Source: an uncultured delta proteobacterium (GTDB lineage Bacteria > Myxococcota_A > UBA9160 > SZUA-336). Taken from it: a stretch of 64,000 nucleotides of DNA. Where the stretch lies: the NCBI GenBank assembly GCA_963704165.1, contig CAVPHD010000001.1, forward strand, positions 544,001 through 608,000, written 5' to 3'. Within the stretch, counting starts at the first letter, position 1, and each line of letters starts with the position of its first letter. Positions 9,259 through 20,195 of this stretch are shown one piece after another. The notes below the pieces were generated by a model. The model saw nothing but the letters and a program-made list of their open reading frames with translations, did not search any database and was not told the DNA's origin. The translations under genes were made by a program, and so were the position numbers.

Positions 9259-12037
<2,779 letters not shown>

Positions 12038-12041
<4 letters not shown>

Positions 12042-12994
12042 GACGGCAGCCTCGAGAGCTCGCGGCGCAGCAGCACGAGGAAGAGCGGCCCGCCGACGAG
12101 CGCGGTGAGGGCGCCGACCGGAAGCTCGATCGGCGCGAGCACGACGCGCGCGAGCGTGTCCGCGATCACCAGGAAGGCCGCGCCGGCGAGCGCCGAGGCG
12201 GGAAGCAGCGTGCGGTGGTCGGAGCCGATCGCCAGACGGAGCAGGTGCGGCACGATCAGGCCGACGAATCCGATCAGACCCGACACCGCGACCGACGCGC
12301 CGATCATCAGCGCGCTCGCGGCGAGGACGTGCCGGCGCGTGCGCGGCACGTCGACACCGAGGTGGGCCGCCGTCTCGTCGCCCTGCGCGAGCAGGTTCAG
12401 CGCGTAGGCGTGGCGCAGCGCGATTCCGAGTCCGATCGCGAAGAGCGCCGCCACGCCCGCGAGAAGCGCCGGCTCGACCAGGCGGATCGAGCCGATCAGC
12501 CAGAGGAAGACGCTCGCGACCCGCGACAGATCCGCGGCGCTGGTCACGAACACGATCAGCGACGATGCGAACGCGTTGAACACGACGCCGGTGAGCAGCA
12601 GGCTGTGCGCGGGAGCGCGACCGCCCGAAGCCGGCGATCGCGTAGAGCAAGAGGCTCGCGCCGAGCGCCCCGGCGAACGCGACCAGCGGCACGGCCGAAC
12701 CGCCGAGCCAGAACCCGGCGCCGAGCGCCAGCGCCGCGACGCCGCCGAGCGCCGCGCCACCCGAGATTCCGAGCACGTACGGATCGGCGAGCGGATTCTG
12801 CAGGAGCGCCTGGAGCAGCGCTCCCGCCGTCGCCAGCCCCGCGCCGACGATCGCGGCGAGCAGCGCGCGCGGCAGGCGGATCTCGAAGCACGATCGCGGC
12901 GGTCGGATTCTGCGCCGACCCGATCCACAGGCTTGCGCCGACGCAGGCGAGCACGAGCAGCCCGAGCCATCCGAGCACCGGACGCGAAGCTCAC
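12038..12994 (-). CDS. FecCD/BtuC-family ABC permease (several apparent frameshifts ~12980, ~12890, ~12625)
   Basis: [35 protein letters not shown] and ELPVG..TALVGGP, spread over frames. Confidence 0.85.
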
Positions 12995-13860
12995 GGCGCG
13001 CGGCTCGCTTCGAAGTCGGGGTGGACGCGCGCGCGCAGGATCCGCGCGCCCTCGGCGAGCCGCGCGCCGGGCAACGTCGCGACGCGCGACGACACGATCT
13101 CGACGCGGCGCACGAAGCTGAAGCGCGACCAATAGGCACGGGCTTCGCGCTCCGTCTCCGGTCCGGTCGCCGCGACCTGCGTCGAGTCGATCAGCACGTC
13201 GGGAGCGCGCTCGGCGAGAAGCTCGAGCGAAACCTGTGGATAGGCGCTCGGAAGGTCGGCGAAGACATTTCGCCCGCCGGCGACCTCGATCAACGCGCTC
13301 GCGAAGCTGCCGCCCGCGGCGACGTAGAGCGGCTCGCGTTCGACGACCAGCGCGACGCTCGGTCGCGCGAACACTTCGACCGAACGCGAGACGTCGGCGA
13401 GTTGCTCGCGCACGCGAGCGACGAGCGCCCGCGCTTCGGGCTCGCGCCCGATCTCTCGCCCGATCTCCTCGTAGGTGCCGAGGACCCGTTCGAGCGAGCC
13501 GCTCGAATCGATCTCGTGGACGCGGATGCCGCGCGAACGGAGCTGCGCGAAGAACGCCCCCTGCGACTCGCTCCGAACGCCGAGCACCAGCGTCGGCCGG
13601 AGTTCGAGCGCGCGCTCGAGGTCGGGCGCGAAGAGACCGCCGAGCGAGGGCAGCTCGCCAATTCCCGGAAGCGCGCGCGAGTACTGGTCGACGCCGACCA
13701 GCATGTCTCGCTCACCGAGCGCCATGACGATGTCGGTCGTCGAGGGCGAGAGTGAGATGACGCGCGGCACGCCGATCTCGGCCGCGGGCTCGCTCGCGCT
13801 GCACGCGCAGGAGACCGCGATGGCGAATGCGATCCAGCGGGCGCTTCGGGGGATGCGCAC
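12991..13860 (-). CDS. Helical-backbone (BtuF/FecB-like) substrate-binding protein
   Basis: [32 protein letters not shown] and VSLELL..RAPDVLI; signal peptide. Confidence 0.88.
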
Positions 13861-14347: not shown

Positions 14348-15359
14348 CTAGCTCTGGCGGCCGACGACGAAGTCCGCGAGCGCGAGCATCGCGTGCTTCG
14401 CCTCGCAATCCACGAACGGTTCGATCTGCGAGCGCGCCTGGCTGCCGAGCTGCTCCGCACGGGCGAGCGCGCTCTCGACGCCACGGTGCCGGGCCACGCA
14501 CTCGGCCACGCGTTGCACGCTCTCGCGGTCCGGGCTGCGCCCGGCGGCGCTCTGCAGCGCGAACTCCTTCAAGAGGGCCGAGATCGCATCGCGCTCCCCT
14601 GTGCTGCAGCGCTTCAGGGTCGCGATCAACGGCAGCGTGAGCTTTCCCTCCGCCACGTCGGTGAGTGGCGCCTTGCCGAGGTCCCGCTCCGTGCCGGCGT
14701 AGTCGAGCGCGTCATCGACGAGCTGGAAGGCGAGGCCGAGGAGCCAGCCGTACTCGCGAACGGCGCGCCGCTCGGAACGAGTCACGCCACCGAGGATCGC
14801 ACCCGCCTCGGCCGCGGCGGCGAGCAGGCTCGACGTCTTTCCGCCGATCACTTCTAGGTAGGTCGGTCTCGTTCATCTCGGGATCGAAGCTGCGCGTCAG
14901 CTGAAGGACCTCGCCCTCGGCCATCGCGCGGATGCTCTCGGCGAAGGCCGCGAGAATGTCGGGGTCCCCGTCCTCGACGAGCGTCTGACAGGTTCGCGCG
15001 TAGAGGAAGTCGCCGACGAGGATCGCGAGCTTGCTGCCGAAGTGCGCGTTCACGCTCGGACGCCCGCGCCGGGTCTCCGCGCCGTCGACGACGTCGTCGT
15101 GCAGGAGCGACGCGCTGTGCAGGTACTCGGCCGCGGCCGCGATCTGGATCGCGCGCGGACCGCGATAGCCGCAGAGTCGAGCGGCGAGCAGAACCATGAC
15201 GGGCCGGACGCGTTTGCCGCCGCTTCCGAACGTGTGCTCGCCGATCGTCGGAATCACCGGCGCGACGGAGCGCATGCCGGCACGCATGACGCGCTCGACC
15301 TGATCGAGGTCGTCGCGCAGGAAGCTGATGATGCGGTCGAGATCGGGGGCGGCTGTCAA
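14348..15359 (-). CDS. Polyprenyl diphosphate synthase (IspB-like), frameshift ~14862
   Basis: GGKRVRP, first DDxxD (LLHDDVVD...RRG) and second AFQLVDDALD...GK motif in two frames. Confidence 0.88.
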
Positions 15360-15411: not shown

Positions 15412-15468
15412 ATGTCAAAGATTCCGATGCCAAATCCGCTTCCATTCCAAGTAGTTAACGGAAGTTCT
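15412..15468 (+). pseudogene. bioF: Detached original 5' end of bioF (MSKIPMPNPLPFQVVNGSS), cut off by the IS
   Basis: ATGs at 15412 and 15427 read to the TSD. Removing the IS plus one TSD joins them in frame to RLDAEL... at 19041. Confidence 0.65.
15461..15468 (+). repeat. Left 8-bp target-site duplication GAAGTTCT
   Basis: Identical to 19033-19040; abuts the left TIR. Confidence 0.88.
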
Positions 15469-15490
15469 CGGAATTAGGTACTTGACGCAA
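15469..15490 (+). repeat. Left terminal inverted repeat CGGAATTAGGTACTTGACGCAA
   Basis: 19/22 match to the reverse complement of 19011-19032 (GGCAATTAGATACTTGACGCAA). Confidence 0.9.
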
Positions 15491-15522
15491 CAGTCTCCGC
15501 CTGACCCTAGACTAGGCGCAGT

Positions 15523-15828
15523 TCATTGAGACGGTGTGACCTTGGACCTCCGCAGCGTCGGCCAGTCGGAGAACCCAAGTGCCCAGCGAGCCGCGAAGAT
15601 GCAGCCGGCGATTGGAGCCCACTTCCCGGCGTGGAAAACGATCACCAGCCTGAGCATTCGGAGTGCGGGGCTCGCGGCCTCGACCCCGACGGGAGCGAAC
15701 AGGGAGTCGCCCCCGCTCAACACTCGAACGACCGAATCGAGCGACTTGAACATCTGCCAGGACCAATACGCCGACCAAACAGCGATCGCGAGCCGACACG
15801 CAAAGCCGAACCAGTTCTCCCGTTTCAC
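15523..15828 (-). CDS. IS passenger: small hypothetical membrane protein (101 aa)
   Basis: GTG with an upstream GGAG, two hydrophobic segments, co-oriented with the other cargo genes. Confidence 0.45.
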   Translation of the reverse strand: MKRENWFGFACRLAIAVWSAYWSWQMFKSLDSVVRVLSGGDSLFAPVGVEAASPALRMLRLVIVFHAGKWAPIAGCIFAARWALGFSDWPTLRRSKVTPSQ

Positions 15829-15844
15829 GCCGCGGGTCTCCGGC

Positions 15845-16012
15845 TCAGCGCCGAACCGCTTTGCGCCGTGTTCTCTTCTTCTTCGGCCGCTCCGGCCATC
15901 CGCCCTCGGGCTTTCGCTTGGAGACCGCTCCTTTCAGCGCATCCTCCCAGGTTCCTGGCAGATGTAGCGCTCTAGCGTCTGGCCCGGTGTTCTTGGTCTT
16001 CCGATTTGCCAC
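15845..16012 (-). CDS. IS passenger: small basic protein (55 aa; TGPD..LHLPGTWEDALKGAV.KRKPEGGWP)
   Basis: GTG 10 nt after the NYN stop. It resembles small basic ORFs I recall accompanying IS1595 transposases (not verified). Confidence 0.5.
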   Translation of the reverse strand: MANRKTKNTGPDARALHLPGTWEDALKGAVSKRKPEGGWPERPKKKRTRRKAVRR

Positions 16013-16022
16013 GGGTGAAACT

Positions 16023-16673
16023 CTAAGAGCCTGCCGGCGGCAAGTATTTCTGGGGGCAGCGGGCAACCACGATTCCCGTCGAGTCCTTGACCTCTAGGGG
16101 AAAGAGGCTCTTGCGCAGGTGTTTCGGCTCGATACTGCGAAGGCTCGGATATCCACCGAATGCGTGCACGATCTCCTTGCTGTGCCGCCGCTTCGGTGGC
16201 GCAACGAGCCGAAGGGGCTTCGTGGGGAACTGCGTTCTGAGCATTCGCACAACAGGCGCCAGATCGGAGTCTGCCGAGAGAAGAAGTCCCATATCGTACG
16301 AGTTCTTGTACGCCTCGTTCAGCATGAAGAGGCCGATGTTCACGTCCGTCTCCTTTTCCTCGTGCGCGATCCACTTCCCGCCGCACTTCTTGCAACTGCG
16401 GTCCTTCGGCTTAAAGAACCCCATGACCGGCGTCACCCCCACGCCTTCCAGTGCAGCAACGTATTCGCGGTGGCGTGCATATGCATCTGGAAGCCATGTG
16501 GCGTACGCAGAGAAGTAGTAGATCTCGCGCAACTCTTGGTATGGCTTGGGAACAAAGAGCTGCAGGAGCGCCCTTAGGTTCAACCACTTGAAGTGGTTCT
16601 GTCCAATGTCATCAAGCGCATGGTAGATGTTGAACCCATCGACAAAGGCCGCGACTCGTTGTGTCCGTACCAT
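16023..16673 (-). CDS. NYN-domain (LabA/DUF88, PIN-like) putative ribonuclease with CxxC insert
   Basis: FVDGFNIYH, EEKETDVNI and LLSADSDLAP acidic motifs intact; CKKC insert. ATG 16673 has SD GAGGG. Confidence 0.88.
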   Translation of the reverse strand: MVRTQRVAAFVDGFNIYHALDDIGQNHFKWLNLRALLQLFVPKPYQELREIYYFSAYATWLPDAYARHREYVAALEGVGVTPVMGFFKPKDRSCKKCGGKWIAHEEKETDVNIGLFMLNEAYKNSYDMGLLLSADSDLAPVVRMLRTQFPTKPLRLVAPPKRRHSKEIVHAFGGYPSLRSIEPKHLRKSLFPLEVKDSTGIVVARCPQKYLPPAGS

Positions 16674-16758
16674 GTTGGCCCTCAAGTCCGGCTGGACGAC
16701 AGCCGAATCCGCGTCTAAGATTCGCCTTGAGTCATCCCGCAAGGTTCGCCCTTGCGCC

Positions 16759-16788
16759 GCCCATGGGCTTCGGCCCATGGGCTTTTCT
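16759..16788 (+). terminator. Intrinsic-terminator-like hairpin oriented antisense to the cargo genes
   Basis: GCCCATGGGC-TTCG-GCCCATGGGC (10-bp perfect stem) followed by TTTTCT on the + strand. Confidence 0.6.
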
Positions 16789-16809
16789 ACATCAGATACG
16801 CGAAAATGC

Positions 16810-16876
16810 TGGAGCCGGAGGGGATCAAACCCTCGCGCCCAAGTTCCAAGCCCGGACGCAGTACCAACTCGGCCCC
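16810..16876 (-). ncRNA. tRNA-like RNA (67 nt) with Ala-type acceptor stem and no D-stem
   Basis: GGGGCCG/CGGCTCC-A acceptor (G3:U70, A73); 10-nt AGTTGGTACT linker; 9-bp stem GCGTCCGGG/CTTGGGCGC with loop CTTGGAA; T-arm GAGGG-TTTGATC-CCCTC; followed by GCA rather than CCA. Confidence 0.65.
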
Positions 16877-16988
16877 GAAGGGATCGCTCACCATGGCCCG
16901 CCCCAAGCCGTCCCAACGCGCTTGGAGGCGGGCCTTCTGGTTACGGCCACCAACTCCGGTGAACAGGAGAGCGGTGGCTAAACGGTCC

Positions 16989-17714
16989 TCATGATTCCTC
17001 CAGCGGCAGGGTCGCTAGAAACTTCGCCAACCGGTCTACGTCGGCGGCTGTCAGATCCATAGGCAGCGCGAGCTTGATAGGCATGTCCCGACGAAGTTGG
17101 AACGGATGGACCATGAACCCAGAAGGGGTGTCAATTACTGGTGTGCGGTGAACGTCATCGTTCGGCGTACCCTGATCGCGCTGTCCGGATCCGCGTTTCT
17201 TGCTTGGCTTCCGCGAGCTCCGGGACTGAGCCGATTGCTGTCTACTAGCTCCACCTGCACCACGGCGGGGCTCGAAGTGGGGCGATATAGTCAGCTTCGC
17301 TTCCTGCATCGCGGAAAGGTAGAATCGCACTGCTTTATCGAGGACTTGGTTCTCTGCCTTGCCTCGTGTTCGGAATGCTTCCTTGAGCTGCGCGATGGTG
17401 CCAGAGTCGAGATCCACTCCTGCGAGAATCTCGCCGTACGCCTCTGAGATTGCGTTTCCTAGCGCCTCCGGCCACGTCGATGTACCATGGGCCTTCACGA
17501 CGGCCCGAAGCCGATCGGTAACAATTCCGGGGCCTTGGATCATCCCGAGAAAACGGAGAGCAACGCGCAGATGGCTTTGGGTTGCGCCGGACATGCTGGT
17601 CATCAGGCTCGCGTCGATCGCCGGGGGAAGGGCGGTTTTGCTCAGCTTTCCGATGAAGCCCAGGAAGGTCTGGAAGGGTACGTAGGGCGGTCGAGCCGTT
17701 TCTTCTTTGCTCAT
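16989..17714 (-). CDS. IS passenger: DUF5343-like protein
   Basis: PPYVPFQTF..FI..L....LP..ID.S.M..MSG.TQ..L..ALRFLG pattern (family assignment from memory), basic linker and short C-terminal LP.DLT.ADVDRL..FL domain. SD GGAG precedes ATG 17714. Confidence 0.6.
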   Translation of the reverse strand: MSKEETARPPYVPFQTFLGFIGKLSKTALPPAIDASLMTSMSGATQSHLRVALRFLGMIQGPGIVTDRLRAVVKAHGTSTWPEALGNAISEAYGEILAGVDLDSGTIAQLKEAFRTRGKAENQVLDKAVRFYLSAMQEAKLTISPHFEPRRGAGGASRQQSAQSRSSRKPSKKRGSGQRDQGTPNDDVHRTPVIDTPSGFMVHPFQLRRDMPIKLALPMDLTAADVDRLAKFLATLPLEES

Positions 17715-17746
17715 CATCAACTCCGTGAATTACGTGGAGAGCGACA

Positions 17747-18028
17747 ATGGAACAGACAAGTCGAGTCGTGTCAACCCCAGCGGAGTACGTCACGGATGCA
17801 GTGACGGCGCTCGTGCGGGCGTATGGCGATGAGGCGGTAGAGCTGCGGGCCTTCCGTACCGCTGCGGACCGCGTAGCAGTTGTCGGTCCTGATGGAACTA
17901 CGACCGGATATCCGATCTGCTTCGTGTACGAGTGGGATGCCCAGCTGTTCGAGCGCCTGAGTGCTGCATACGGCGCAGCCGATTGCGCGCAGCTCGAACG
18001 GCTGTGGACCCTCGCGAAGCCCTTCTAG
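17747..18028 (+). CDS. IS passenger: hypothetical protein, convergent on the transposase
   Basis: Only ORF filling the gap. GGAG precedes the ATG; the start may instead be GTG 17801. Confidence 0.45.
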   Translation: MEQTSRVVSTPAEYVTDAVTALVRAYGDEAVELRAFRTAADRVAVVGPDGTTTGYPICFVYEWDAQLFERLSAAYGAADCAQLERLWTLAKPF

Positions 18029-18984
18029 TACGAATCGCGCATCAAGCGCTTGCCATCGCCATTCCGAATCGCCAGCACCGTTCGATCGCCGTCGTCCATC
18101 TTGCGAGCGTTGTAGCGGAACTCGAACTCTGCCACGTAGCGATGCAGGTGCTTCGGCGAGACGTGGTGGAACGTTCCGTAGATCCCTCGCTTCAGCAGCG
18201 AGAAGAAGCCCTCGACGGTGTTGGTCGTTACGTCGCCGCGGGCGTACTCGTAGAGGCTGTGCTTCACCGCGTGATGGCCTCCCGCGAAGTGCTTGTTGAG
18301 CCCGCGATATGGATGCGCCTCGTCGGTCATGATGCGCGCGCTAGGGTCAACGTGCTGGCGGACCTTGGCCTTCAGGTTCTGACCCGGACCCTTCGGGACG
18401 TGTGAAGCGCGTGCATTGCCACCGCGCTCGACCATCGCGAACACGGTCTCCTTGGGCGTGCGCTTGTTCTTGCCGTGGAGGCGCTGGTTGCGCATTCGAG
18501 TCCGGCCACCGACGTAGGTCTCATCAACCTCGACGGTGCCCTGGAGCTGCGGTGGCGTGGAGTGGTCTTCGGCCATCGCGAACCGGATGCGGTGCATCAT
18601 GAAGAGCGCGCTCTTGTATGTGAGCCCGGTCTCCCGCTTGATCTGGAGCGCCGAGACGCCTTTCTTCGACGAGCACGCGCGCCAGAAGGCATGGCACCAG
18701 ATGCGCATCGGGATCGGGCTGTCCTCGAAGATCGTACCGACCCGGACGGTGAACTGGCGCTTGCAGCCCTTGCAGCGCCACAGGAAACGCTTGCTGCGCT
18801 CGCCGGTGGTGCGATCCTTCATCGCGTACACGTTCACGTCACCACAGCGCGGGCAGGCGGGCTCGCCGCCCCACCGCTGGGCTTCTATGAACTCGACCGC
18901 AACGCTTTCGTCGCGACACGCCTCTGGGAGTTGGGCGATGATCGAGTCCTTGTCCTGCCCGACCTTGCGTTGTCGTTGTGCCAT
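18025..18984 (-). CDS. IS1595-family DDE transposase
   Basis: Zn ribbon CPRCG...WRCKGC; KKGVSALQI HTH; VEVDETYVGG, IMTDE and TNTVEGFFSLLKRGIYGTFHHVS.KHLHRYV.EF.FRYN. Confidence 0.96.
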   Translation of the reverse strand: MAQRQRKVGQDKDSIIAQLPEACRDESVAVEFIEAQRWGGEPACPRCGDVNVYAMKDRTTGERSKRFLWRCKGCKRQFTVRVGTIFEDSPIPMRIWCHAFWRACSSKKGVSALQIKRETGLTYKSALFMMHRIRFAMAEDHSTPPQLQGTVEVDETYVGGRTRMRNQRLHGKNKRTPKETVFAMVERGGNARASHVPKGPGQNLKAKVRQHVDPSARIMTDEAHPYRGLNKHFAGGHHAVKHSLYEYARGDVTTNTVEGFFSLLKRGIYGTFHHVSPKHLHRYVAEFEFRYNARKMDDGDRTVLAIRNGDGKRLMRDSY

Positions 18985-18990
18985 GCCCGT

Positions 18991-19019
18991 AGACTAGAGG
19001 AATCAACGGTTTGCGTCAA
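18991..19019 (-). promoter_or_regulatory. Putative sigma70 promoter of the transposase (-35 inside the TIR), likely leaderless mRNA
   Basis: TTGACG (19019-19014), 17 nt, TAGTCT (18996-18991), then 6 nt to ATG 18984; no SD. Confidence 0.6.
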
Positions 19020-19032
19020 GTATCTAATTGCC
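19011..19032 (+). repeat. Right terminal inverted repeat
   Basis: TTGCGTCAAGTATCTAATTGCC, inverted copy of 15469-15490. Confidence 0.9.
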
Positions 19033-20195
19033 GAAGTTCTCGGCTCGACGCCGAGCTCGCGATCGAGCTCGGCACCCTGCGCGAGAGGAGCCTGTACAGG
19101 CGTCTCCGGCGCATCGAGGGACGACAGGCGCCGCGCATGCGCGTCGACGGCCGCGAGTGCACGATGCTCGCCGGATCGAACTACCTCGACCTCGCGGGTG
19201 ACGCGCGCGTGATTGCCGCCGCGCAGAGCGCAGCGGACGAGTACGGCACCGCCGCGGCGGGATCGCGGCTGATCAACGGAAACCTCGCGCTCCACGAGGA
19301 GCTCGAGGCCGATCTCGCGCGCTTCACCGGCCACGAGGCCGCGCTCGTCTTCAGCAGCGGGTACATGGCGAATCTCGGGGTGCTCGGCGCGCTCTGTGGA
19401 CCCGACGACGTGATCGTCTCGGACTCGTTGAACCACGCGAGCATCATCGACGCCTGCAGACTCTCGCGCGCACAGACGCGCGTGTTCCGCCACAACGACC
19501 CCGCGGATCTCGCGCGTGTCGCCGCGGAGCTCGCCGGCTACCGGCGTCGGGTGCTGGTCGTCGATGGCGTCTACAGCATGGATGGCGACAGGTCGCGGCT
19601 CTCCGAGCTCGTGCCGATCGCGCGAGCTCACGAGATGATCGTCGTGCTCGACGACGCGCACGGTCTCGGCGTGCTCGGCGCGACGGGCCGCGGCGTATCC
19701 GAGGCCGAAGGCGTCGCGGTCGACCTCTCGATCGGGAATCTCGGCAAGGCACTCGGCAGCTTCGGCGCGTTCGTCGCCTGCTCGGCGCGCGTGCGCGAGT
19801 ACCTGGTGAACACCTCGCGCAGCTTCATCTTCACCTGTGCGGTCGCGCCGCCCGCGCTCGGCGCGGCACGCGAGGCGCTGCGGATCGCGCAAGGGGAACC
19901 GGAACGCCGAAAGCTCCTGCTCGAGCGCGCGGAGCAGCTCCGCGTCGGCCTGCGTACGGCCGGCTACGACACGGGCGCGAGCACGACGCAGATCGTTCCG
20001 GCGATCGTCGGCGAGAACGACGCGGTAATGCGACTGACCGAAGCCGCGCTCGAGCGCGGCGTCTACGCGCAGGGCATCCGCCACCCGTCCGTGCCGCACG
20101 GCACGGCCCGGATCCGCTTCACGCCCACCTGCGCGCACACGGCCTCGGACATTGTCCGGGTGGTCGAGATCTTCGCGGAGCTTCGCGACTCGTGA
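19011..20195 (+). CDS. bioF: 8-amino-7-oxononanoate synthase (start now lies in the IS TIR)
   Basis: SNYLDL, GSRLING, FSSGYMAN, SDSLNHASIIDAC, DGVYSMDGD, DDAHG and LGKALG (PLP Lys); followed by bioA and bioD. Confidence 0.9.
   Translation: MRQVSNCRSSRLDAELAIELGTLRERSLYRRLRRIEGRQAPRMRVDGRECTMLAGSNYLDLAGDARVIAAAQSAADEYGTAAAGSRLINGNLALHEELEADLARFTGHEAALVFSSGYMANLGVLGALCGPDDVIVSDSLNHASIIDACRLSRAQTRVFRHNDPADLARVAAELAGYRRRVLVVDGVYSMDGDRSRLSELVPIARAHEMIVVLDDAHGLGVLGATGRGVSEAEGVAVDLSIGNLGKALGSFGAFVACSARVREYLVNTSRSFIFTCAVAPPALGAAREALRIAQGEPERRKLLLERAEQLRVGLRTAGYDTGASTTQIVPAIVGENDAVMRLTEAALERGVYAQGIRHPSVPHGTARIRFTPTCAHTASDIVRVVEIFAELRDS
19033..19040 (+). repeat. Right 8-bp target-site duplication GAAGTTCT
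   Basis: Identical to 15461-15468. Confidence 0.88.

Follow-up and report, generated by a model that had tools for sequence, protein, structure and literature searches.

A NYN nuclease gene with a candidate small RNA partner and a separate tRNA-like RNA in the cargo of an IS1595 transposon

Type III toxin–antitoxin systems (ToxIN, CptIN and TenpIN) are arranged as promoter, RNA, terminator and RNase gene, and ToxN-like nucleases are among the known partners of RNA antitoxins. In Clostridioides difficile, the small RNA RCd22 neutralises AbiF by binding it directly, in trans as well as in cis, according to the available part of that report (10.1101/2025.04.15.648962). For bacterial NYN domains, the accessible text of PMC5499597 recorded no functional studies as of its date; a characterised CRISPR-linked bacterial NYN protein trims crRNA, and the accessible portion of the article describes no toxin role for it (PMC11346440). 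HEC-09, an NYN gene presented as a single candidate defence gene, was assayed with its putative native promoter region and gave no protection against any phage tested, and the available text of the study mentions no RNA partner (10.1101/2024.01.29.577857). Passenger-carrying IS1595 elements, known as transporter insertion sequences (tIS), include ISNha5 (available text of PMC11891212, citing Siguier et al. 2009). Moreover, soil bacteria have allo-tRNAs and irregular tRNAs, the latter near transposon and toxin–antitoxin genes; G3:U70 variants were tried as substrates of alanyl-tRNA synthetase and worked as suppressors in Escherichia coli (available text of PMC5389517).

The locus described here lies within a window of 64 kb, the whole stretch of DNA that was analysed, and is a cargo-carrying IS1595 transposon, which as a transposon is ordinary (Table 1). 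The element spans 15469–19032 (3,564 bp), occurs once in its own genome (G000), and is a low-GC insert (61% vs 68–71% in genome and flanks) between a bioF-like gene and a polyprenyl-synthase-like gene, both ORFs read by eye. Its transposase matches PF12762 (5e-43, 147 bits) and NF033547 (2e-54, 185 bits), above the family cut-off; no transposase relatives were found in viral contigs. Imperfect terminal inverted repeats and an exact target duplication enclose passenger genes, as in a transporter IS, and together with the profiles they bear out the sequence-only reading that an IS1595 transposon carries a DUF5343-like gene, a structured spacer and an NYN gene. The end motif presumably resembles that of ISNha5. 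The transposase, inverted repeats, target duplication and passengers are shared with the tIS in the available text of PMC11891212, from which this element differs in having two RNA genes in its cargo. The 55-aa basic ORF is a possible core accessory gene. Elsewhere in the window, housekeeping genes are split across frames (enolase-like, 10186–11211; polyprenyl-synthase-like, 14348–15359; ABC transporter, 11213–13139), suggesting indel errors of assembly, and the genes within the IS are intact.

Table 1. Features of the IS1595 element and its target site, in window positions
Feature	Position	Strand	Remarks
Target-site duplication copy 1, 8 bp	15461–15468		
Terminal inverted repeat, end far from transposase	15469–15492		
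101-aa hydrophobic ORF; possibly cargo	15526–15828	-	No Pfam, NCBIfam or PADLOC match
55-aa basic ORF, W-x-x-A...GWP motif	15845–16012	-	In three related IS1595 elements (L167, L185, L216)
NYN gene (LabA/DUF88-type, PADLOC HEC-09 family), predicted ribonuclease, 216 aa	16023–16673	-	Acidic motifs intact, CxxC insert
Predicted sigma70-like promoter of small RNA	16693–16721	+	-35 16693–16698, 17-nt spacer, -10 16716–16721
NYN-associated two-hairpin small RNA	16729–16793	+	Directed away from NYN gene
tRNA-like RNA	16807–16876	-	Like tRNA-like domain of tmRNA
Two long hairpins 5' of tRNA-like RNA	16878–16985	-	Second is terminator-like on + strand
DUF5343-like gene, 241 aa	16989–17714	-	N-terminal domain predicted as winged-helix-like, then a disordered basic linker and a small C-terminal domain
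93-aa ORF divergent from DUF5343 gene	17747–18028	+	No Pfam, NCBIfam or PADLOC match
IS1595-family DDE transposase, zinc ribbon, 319 aa	18025–18984	-	Pfam and NCBIfam profiles
Terminal inverted repeat, transposase end	19009–19032		
Target-site duplication copy 2, 8 bp	19033–19040		

The spacer between the DUF5343-like and NYN genes, previously put at about 315 nt and called heavily folded, measures exactly 315 nt and folds better than 100 of 100 shuffles (z -4.6). It harbours two unrelated RNAs on opposite strands rather than a single co-oriented RNA. The three units had been rightly described as co-oriented as far as the two genes and the tRNA-like part on the minus strand are concerned, and the 3' part of the spacer is a separate RNA gene on the plus strand.

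The predicted NYN protein matches PF01936 (1e-9) and, over nearly its whole length, the PADLOC HEC-09 profile (8e-51), the PADLOC search being one that the sequence-only reading had proposed. The acidic catalytic motifs are intact as that reading had stated: DGFN (residue 12), EEKETD (105) and SADSD (133). In Pfam, NCBIfam and PADLOC, NYN and HEC-09 were the only matches, and ToxN, CptN and TenpN were not among them. Among solved structures the protein has no close relative (best E 0.07), and the matches listed include no RNA holder. An alignment scan gave 555 relatives in genome contigs and 517 in metagenome contigs; the best 80 of each set were kept, and the resulting 160 loci contain near-duplicates. 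A scan of the genome contigs with the single NYN protein as query gave no relative, and the alignment scan did find them.

The regions upstream of these NYN loci share a unit of about 60 nt, with an unpaired CAUCCC-like start, two stems and a U-rich tail. The small RNA of the window has the same architecture: its unpaired 5' CAUCCC motif is followed by stem 1, and then by a terminator stem with a U-rich tail. A terminator is predicted at 16759–16782 (+), and the folding z is -4.9. A covariance model, R1, was built from 46 forward copies with the window copy left out, and contains stem 1 only (6 pairs). It matches the window at 54 bits (E 1.2e-10), which is the sole match in the 64 kb and the sole one reported in G000. 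At E<=0.01 the small RNA adjoins the NYN start in 113 of the 160 loci (62/80 from genomes and 51/80 from metagenomes), and among the NYN loci held out of the model, 67 of 114 have an R1 match. The remaining 47 of the 160 loci have no match at E<=0.01, and five loci have no usable upstream DNA; distant NYN loci score poorly, L167 with 13.3 bits and L169 and L170 with none. Stem 1 is paired in 89.6% of cells with 72 double changes, and its covariation of 0.547 compares with 0.18 in shuffles and at most 0.15 in slid controls, stem 2 not being counted. RNAalifold found stem 1 alone, since stem 2 is out of register between two subfamilies. The linkage of NYN and small RNA spans many phyla, from proteobacteria to chlamydiae.

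In most NYN loci the layout is forward, with promoter, small RNA, terminator and NYN gene in this order, and the promoter score of forward copies is 10.7 vs 8.8 in shuffled sequence. The window copy is inverted, as are copies in five other loci (L037, L066, L147, L161 and L140). In the window, the promoter of the small RNA has 8 of 12 consensus matches, which 4 of 500 shuffles equalled; it falls under the threshold of the scan tool and was not called by it. A sigma70-like promoter on the RNA's own strand stands above chance in the window and in four of the five other inverted loci (fraction of shuffles as good, 0–0.026; 0.198 in L140). Moreover, the unpaired 5' motif is conserved in forward and inverted layouts alike. 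Since the RNA is kept with a promoter of its own when inverted, it behaves as a small RNA gene tied to NYN and not only as a leader, and its retention after inversion fits action in trans. The inverted copy in the window separates cis from trans action naturally.

R1 gave three further matches, two of which precede extra, broken NYN copies. These second copies of the small RNA lie at L065:4227–4291 and L035:4317–4381, each ahead of a broken second NYN copy, and RNA and gene appear to duplicate together. An orphan small RNA (L275:1496–1561, genome G278, 44.8 bits) lies between unrelated genes, with no NYN-profile match in its locus or genome; such a strong orphan occurs in 1 of 141 genomes of the class, and one further borderline match has no NYN in its locus. 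The small RNA reaches no cut-off in Rfam 15. Two described RNAs were tried as its family and set aside: BjrC68 (RF02353) scored at best 33.2 bits vs a cut-off of 39, in 1 of 17 NYN loci, with no match in G000, and marks other loci, the three BjrC68 loci found having neither an NYN nor an R1 match; SorX reached 23.2 of 46.6 bits. A full-text literature search, whose coverage excludes most subscription papers, returned no NYN-linked small RNA, and a small RNA partnered with this widespread NYN family is apparently undescribed.

These data describe a small RNA gene with predicted promoter and terminator that is linked to a nuclease-type gene, which is a type III toxin–antitoxin arrangement in the broad sense. 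We suggest that the NYN gene and the opposite-strand RNA of about 60 nt form an RNA-controlled RNase cassette of the AbiF or type III kind, from which two other pieces of cargo, the tRNA-like RNA and the DUF5343-like gene, are separate; from the comparative analysis we put the probability of this explanation at about 0.5. The sequence-only reading, in proposing a transposon-borne NYN RNase under RNA control, was likely right in spirit, but the RNA that it named was the wrong one: the small RNA adjoins NYN in 113 of 160 loci, and an irregular tRNA lies upstream in 1 of 143. According to the cassette explanation, the short RNA would be made in excess, would bind the NYN protein and would keep it inactive; in the forward layout it would additionally throttle NYN transcription. 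Should its synthesis stop, whether because a phage takes over, under stress or because the element is lost, the RNA would decay and release NYN, which would then cut cellular or phage RNA.

The gene order of most NYN loci is that of ToxIN, CptIN and TenpIN. Unlike these systems, the NYN loci have no tandem array of RNA repeats, the candidate toxin is not of the ToxN family, and the RNA is sometimes inverted; in the window there is one R1 match, and the 20 largest direct-repeat families include no repeats in the spacer. The likeness to AbiF and RCd22, as given in the available part of 10.1101/2025.04.15.648962, lies in a small structured RNA adjoining a nuclease-like gene, and the forward NYN layout matches it. 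AbiF belongs in that text to the Abi_2 family with structural links to Cas13 ancestors, whereas the window protein is a PIN-fold NYN, and RCd22 has two abiF motifs where the NYN-associated RNA is a single unit. Neither the abiF RNA of Rfam nor Abi_2/AbiF of Pfam matched at the window. HEC-09 resembles the window gene across nearly the whole protein and was itself presented, in the available text, as a single gene (10.1101/2024.01.29.577857).

Binding to the protein is not required to account for all of this, because the forward RNA could be a mere 5' leader with a terminator and the inverted copy is a perfect antisense of a read-through NYN mRNA. The small RNA might then act at the mRNA level only, as a leader attenuator (perhaps with feedback through cutting by NYN) in the forward layout and as an antisense RNA in the inverted one, and NYN would be a tuned enzyme of RNA processing or decay rather than a toxin. 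In accordance with such control, most copies lie just ahead of the start codon and end in a U-rich tail, the inverted copy and the NYN leader are complementary throughout, HEC-09 failed to defend against phages in the available text (10.1101/2024.01.29.577857), and the CRISPR-linked NYN processes RNA in the accessible portion of PMC11346440. However, an attenuator should not outlast inversion with a promoter of its own in unrelated genomes, and the unpaired 5' motif stays conserved whichever the layout. Control at the mRNA level alone is the main rival explanation, and we regard it as somewhat unlikely.

If the RNA-controlled cassette is real, the PIN-fold NYN would add a further protein fold to the RNA-antitoxin class, beside the ToxN-like and AbiF nucleases. 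Such a cassette might likewise account for the failure of HEC-09 to protect when assayed with its putative native promoter region, in that the RNA may have kept the protein inactive. More tentatively, and at a level of belief short of even, HEC-09-type NYN proteins with the ~60-nt RNA may constitute a widespread, undescribed RNA-antitoxin family with a single non-repeated RNA, with IS1595 and IS1 transporter ISs in addition carrying a minimal tRNA with the shape of tmRNA's tRNA-like domain, of alanine identity and proline anticodon, together with a DUF5343-like winged-helix gene, as a decoy or a mistranslating adaptor.

The tRNA-like RNA is about 70 nt long and is predicted to fold with a 7-bp acceptor and a T arm, a D arm that is reduced, and UGG in the anticodon loop. 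It also has the sequence marks of an alanyl-tRNA synthetase substrate, G3.U70 and A73, and ends in GCA, with no CCA. It falls short of a canonical tRNA: ARAGORN made no call, a full D arm and CCA are absent, and the Rfam tRNA score is 24.5 bits vs a cut-off of 29. Host RNase P and RNase Z are the likely processing enzymes, and the RNA may be charged with alanine. In the host assembly no tRNA-Pro(UGG) was seen, an absence that carries no weight at 84% completeness. Both ends of the tmRNA model (RF00023) align to the RNA at 20.4 bits vs a cut-off of 47, and the host genome has a full tmRNA elsewhere. The alanine acceptor marks are a further likeness to tmRNA, from which the RNA differs in having no mRNA-like domain or tag frame and in having an anticodon-like loop. 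Allo-tRNAs, as set out in the available text of PMC5389517, have an 8/4 or 9/3 acceptor branch and long variable arms, whereas this RNA is 7/5 with no long variable arm. A full-text search, with limited coverage of subscription papers, found no such minimal tRNA described in insertion sequences. The gene is a further concrete case of an irregular tRNA on a mobile element and an independent cargo of the IS.

Another reading takes the hairpins for common terminators and promoter scars and sees in the tRNA-like stretch a decayed, passively carried remnant of tRNA-Ala. The folding of the stretch is modest (z -2.1, with 4 of 200 shuffles as good; z -0.8 in its L185 copy), CCA is missing, and host tRNA-Ala comes closest to the acceptor and T arm, agreeing at 24 of 32 positions. 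In the L185 copy, nevertheless, the D, anticodon and T stems have changed in a compensatory manner and the anticodon loop has stayed the same. The tRNA-like domain recognised in the spacer from the start gives a weak signal by itself, and it is mainly these changes that confirm it as real. The second long hairpin is identical in L185. Similar short forms occur in other mobile elements (L168 and L272, 33–34 bits with the tmRNA model, adjacent transposases IS1-like by eye), and the small RNA covaries strongly and is tightly linked to NYN. We consider passive remnants improbable. The tRNA-like element pattern was found in two loci of a viral collection and in 0 of 251 genomes in the phylum of G524, and a plasmid search with the region gave no match. 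Short RNAs that are alanine-marked and resemble the tRNA-like domain of tmRNA were also seen at L221:4200–4270 (+), L272:2998–3068 (-) and L273:2998–3070 (-); those of L221 and L273 end in CCA, and the L221 and L272 copies follow another irregular tRNA in tandem.

The assignment of the 241-aa gene as DUF5343-like holds on its nearest ESM Atlas clusters, which are DUF5343 clusters (score 0.94), though its PF17278 score of 16.1 bits (E=0.014) is below the Pfam cut-off of 27; a 38% identical homologue carries PF17278. Relatives at E<=0.001 number 2,087 among 50%-identity representatives, and DUF5343 profile matches occur in 2 of 401 genomes, the own one included. In a wide search the structural model (pLDDT 87) matched many winged-helix proteins, with a best Z of 6.5 (rmsd 4.5, 150 aligned), a level that is not conclusive, and Foldseek with the model gave no match. 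We take the protein to be a likely DNA-binding regulator; the role as sensor once suggested for it found no support. A plasmid search for DUF5343 gave no match, and nothing on DUF5343 was found in the full-text literature search, in which subscription coverage is limited.

In transporter ISs, DUF5343-like winged-helix genes likely tend to accompany the tRNA-like RNA. The link comprises three loci, the window, L168 and L218, plus a remote homologue in L185 (profile comparison probability 45%, E 2e-4); L168 and L218 have both genes with no NYN nearby. L185, an IS1595 element of a sister species (G258:C36), occupies the same site as the window element and shares its target duplication; its transposase is 90% identical but interrupted. 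It keeps the tRNA-like RNA and has no NYN, nor does its genome have an NYN-profile match, so that the RNA occurs independently of the nuclease, independent occurrence being among the outcomes that the sequence-only reading had set against its proposal. Its cargo, with a phosphoribosyltransferase-like gene and a probable remote DUF5343 relative, is largely unlike that of the window element despite the shared site; the same site with different cargo points to exchange of cargo in place or to a preferred target site. Single-sequence comparisons of the L185 and L037 ORFs were blank.

The sequence-only reading had joined the DUF5343-like protein, a tRNA mimic as antitoxin, decoy or substrate, and NYN into one dedicated system. 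All three are co-oriented in the window, an independent case, the IS1595 element of L037, combines NYN and an inverted small RNA with an irregular UGG tRNA and an unassigned 272-aa ORF, a trio similar enough to be the main point in favour of one system, the elements of L167 and L088 each contain a tRNA-like gene besides NYN, and irregular tRNAs near toxin–antitoxin genes are in print (available text of PMC5389517). The expected co-occurrence with NYN homologues failed to appear: an irregular tRNA lies within 450 nt upstream in 1 of 143 NYN loci, ordinary-looking tRNAs in 6 more, and a DUF5343-profile match in 0 of 160. With the 272-aa ORF of L037 matching neither wHTH profile, the tRNA-like RNA present without NYN in L185, tRNA-like genes present beside DUF5343 genes with no NYN nearby in L218 and L168, and tRNA-like genes not enriched in NYN-bearing elements, a dedicated three-part system is very improbable.

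Of 27 IS1595 elements with mapped ends, 6 carry NYN and 21 do not; a tRNA-like gene is present in 4 of the former and in 9 of the latter (Fisher p=0.38, with kin that are not independent). This tally leaves aside L186, L191, L194, L198/L227, L224, L090 and L098, whose ends are unmapped, as well as L200 (the element of L043), L199 (the same as L228) and L189 (a chance GC-rich end call). Since the tRNA-like genes of L185, L216 and L218 escaped Rfam, its blanks for 14 elements are weak, and absence there is judged by our own descriptor. The tRNA-like genes of IS1595 elements mostly have leucine-type bodies, with a UGG loop in 5 of 14 by eye. Leucine-type bodies with mismatched anticodon loops (UGG, UGC, GGG and others) were seen in L167, L037, L215–L219, L221 and L226, and the leucine-type irregular tRNAs of IS1595 elements often lie near HARE-HTH or unassigned ORFs of 170–270 aa.
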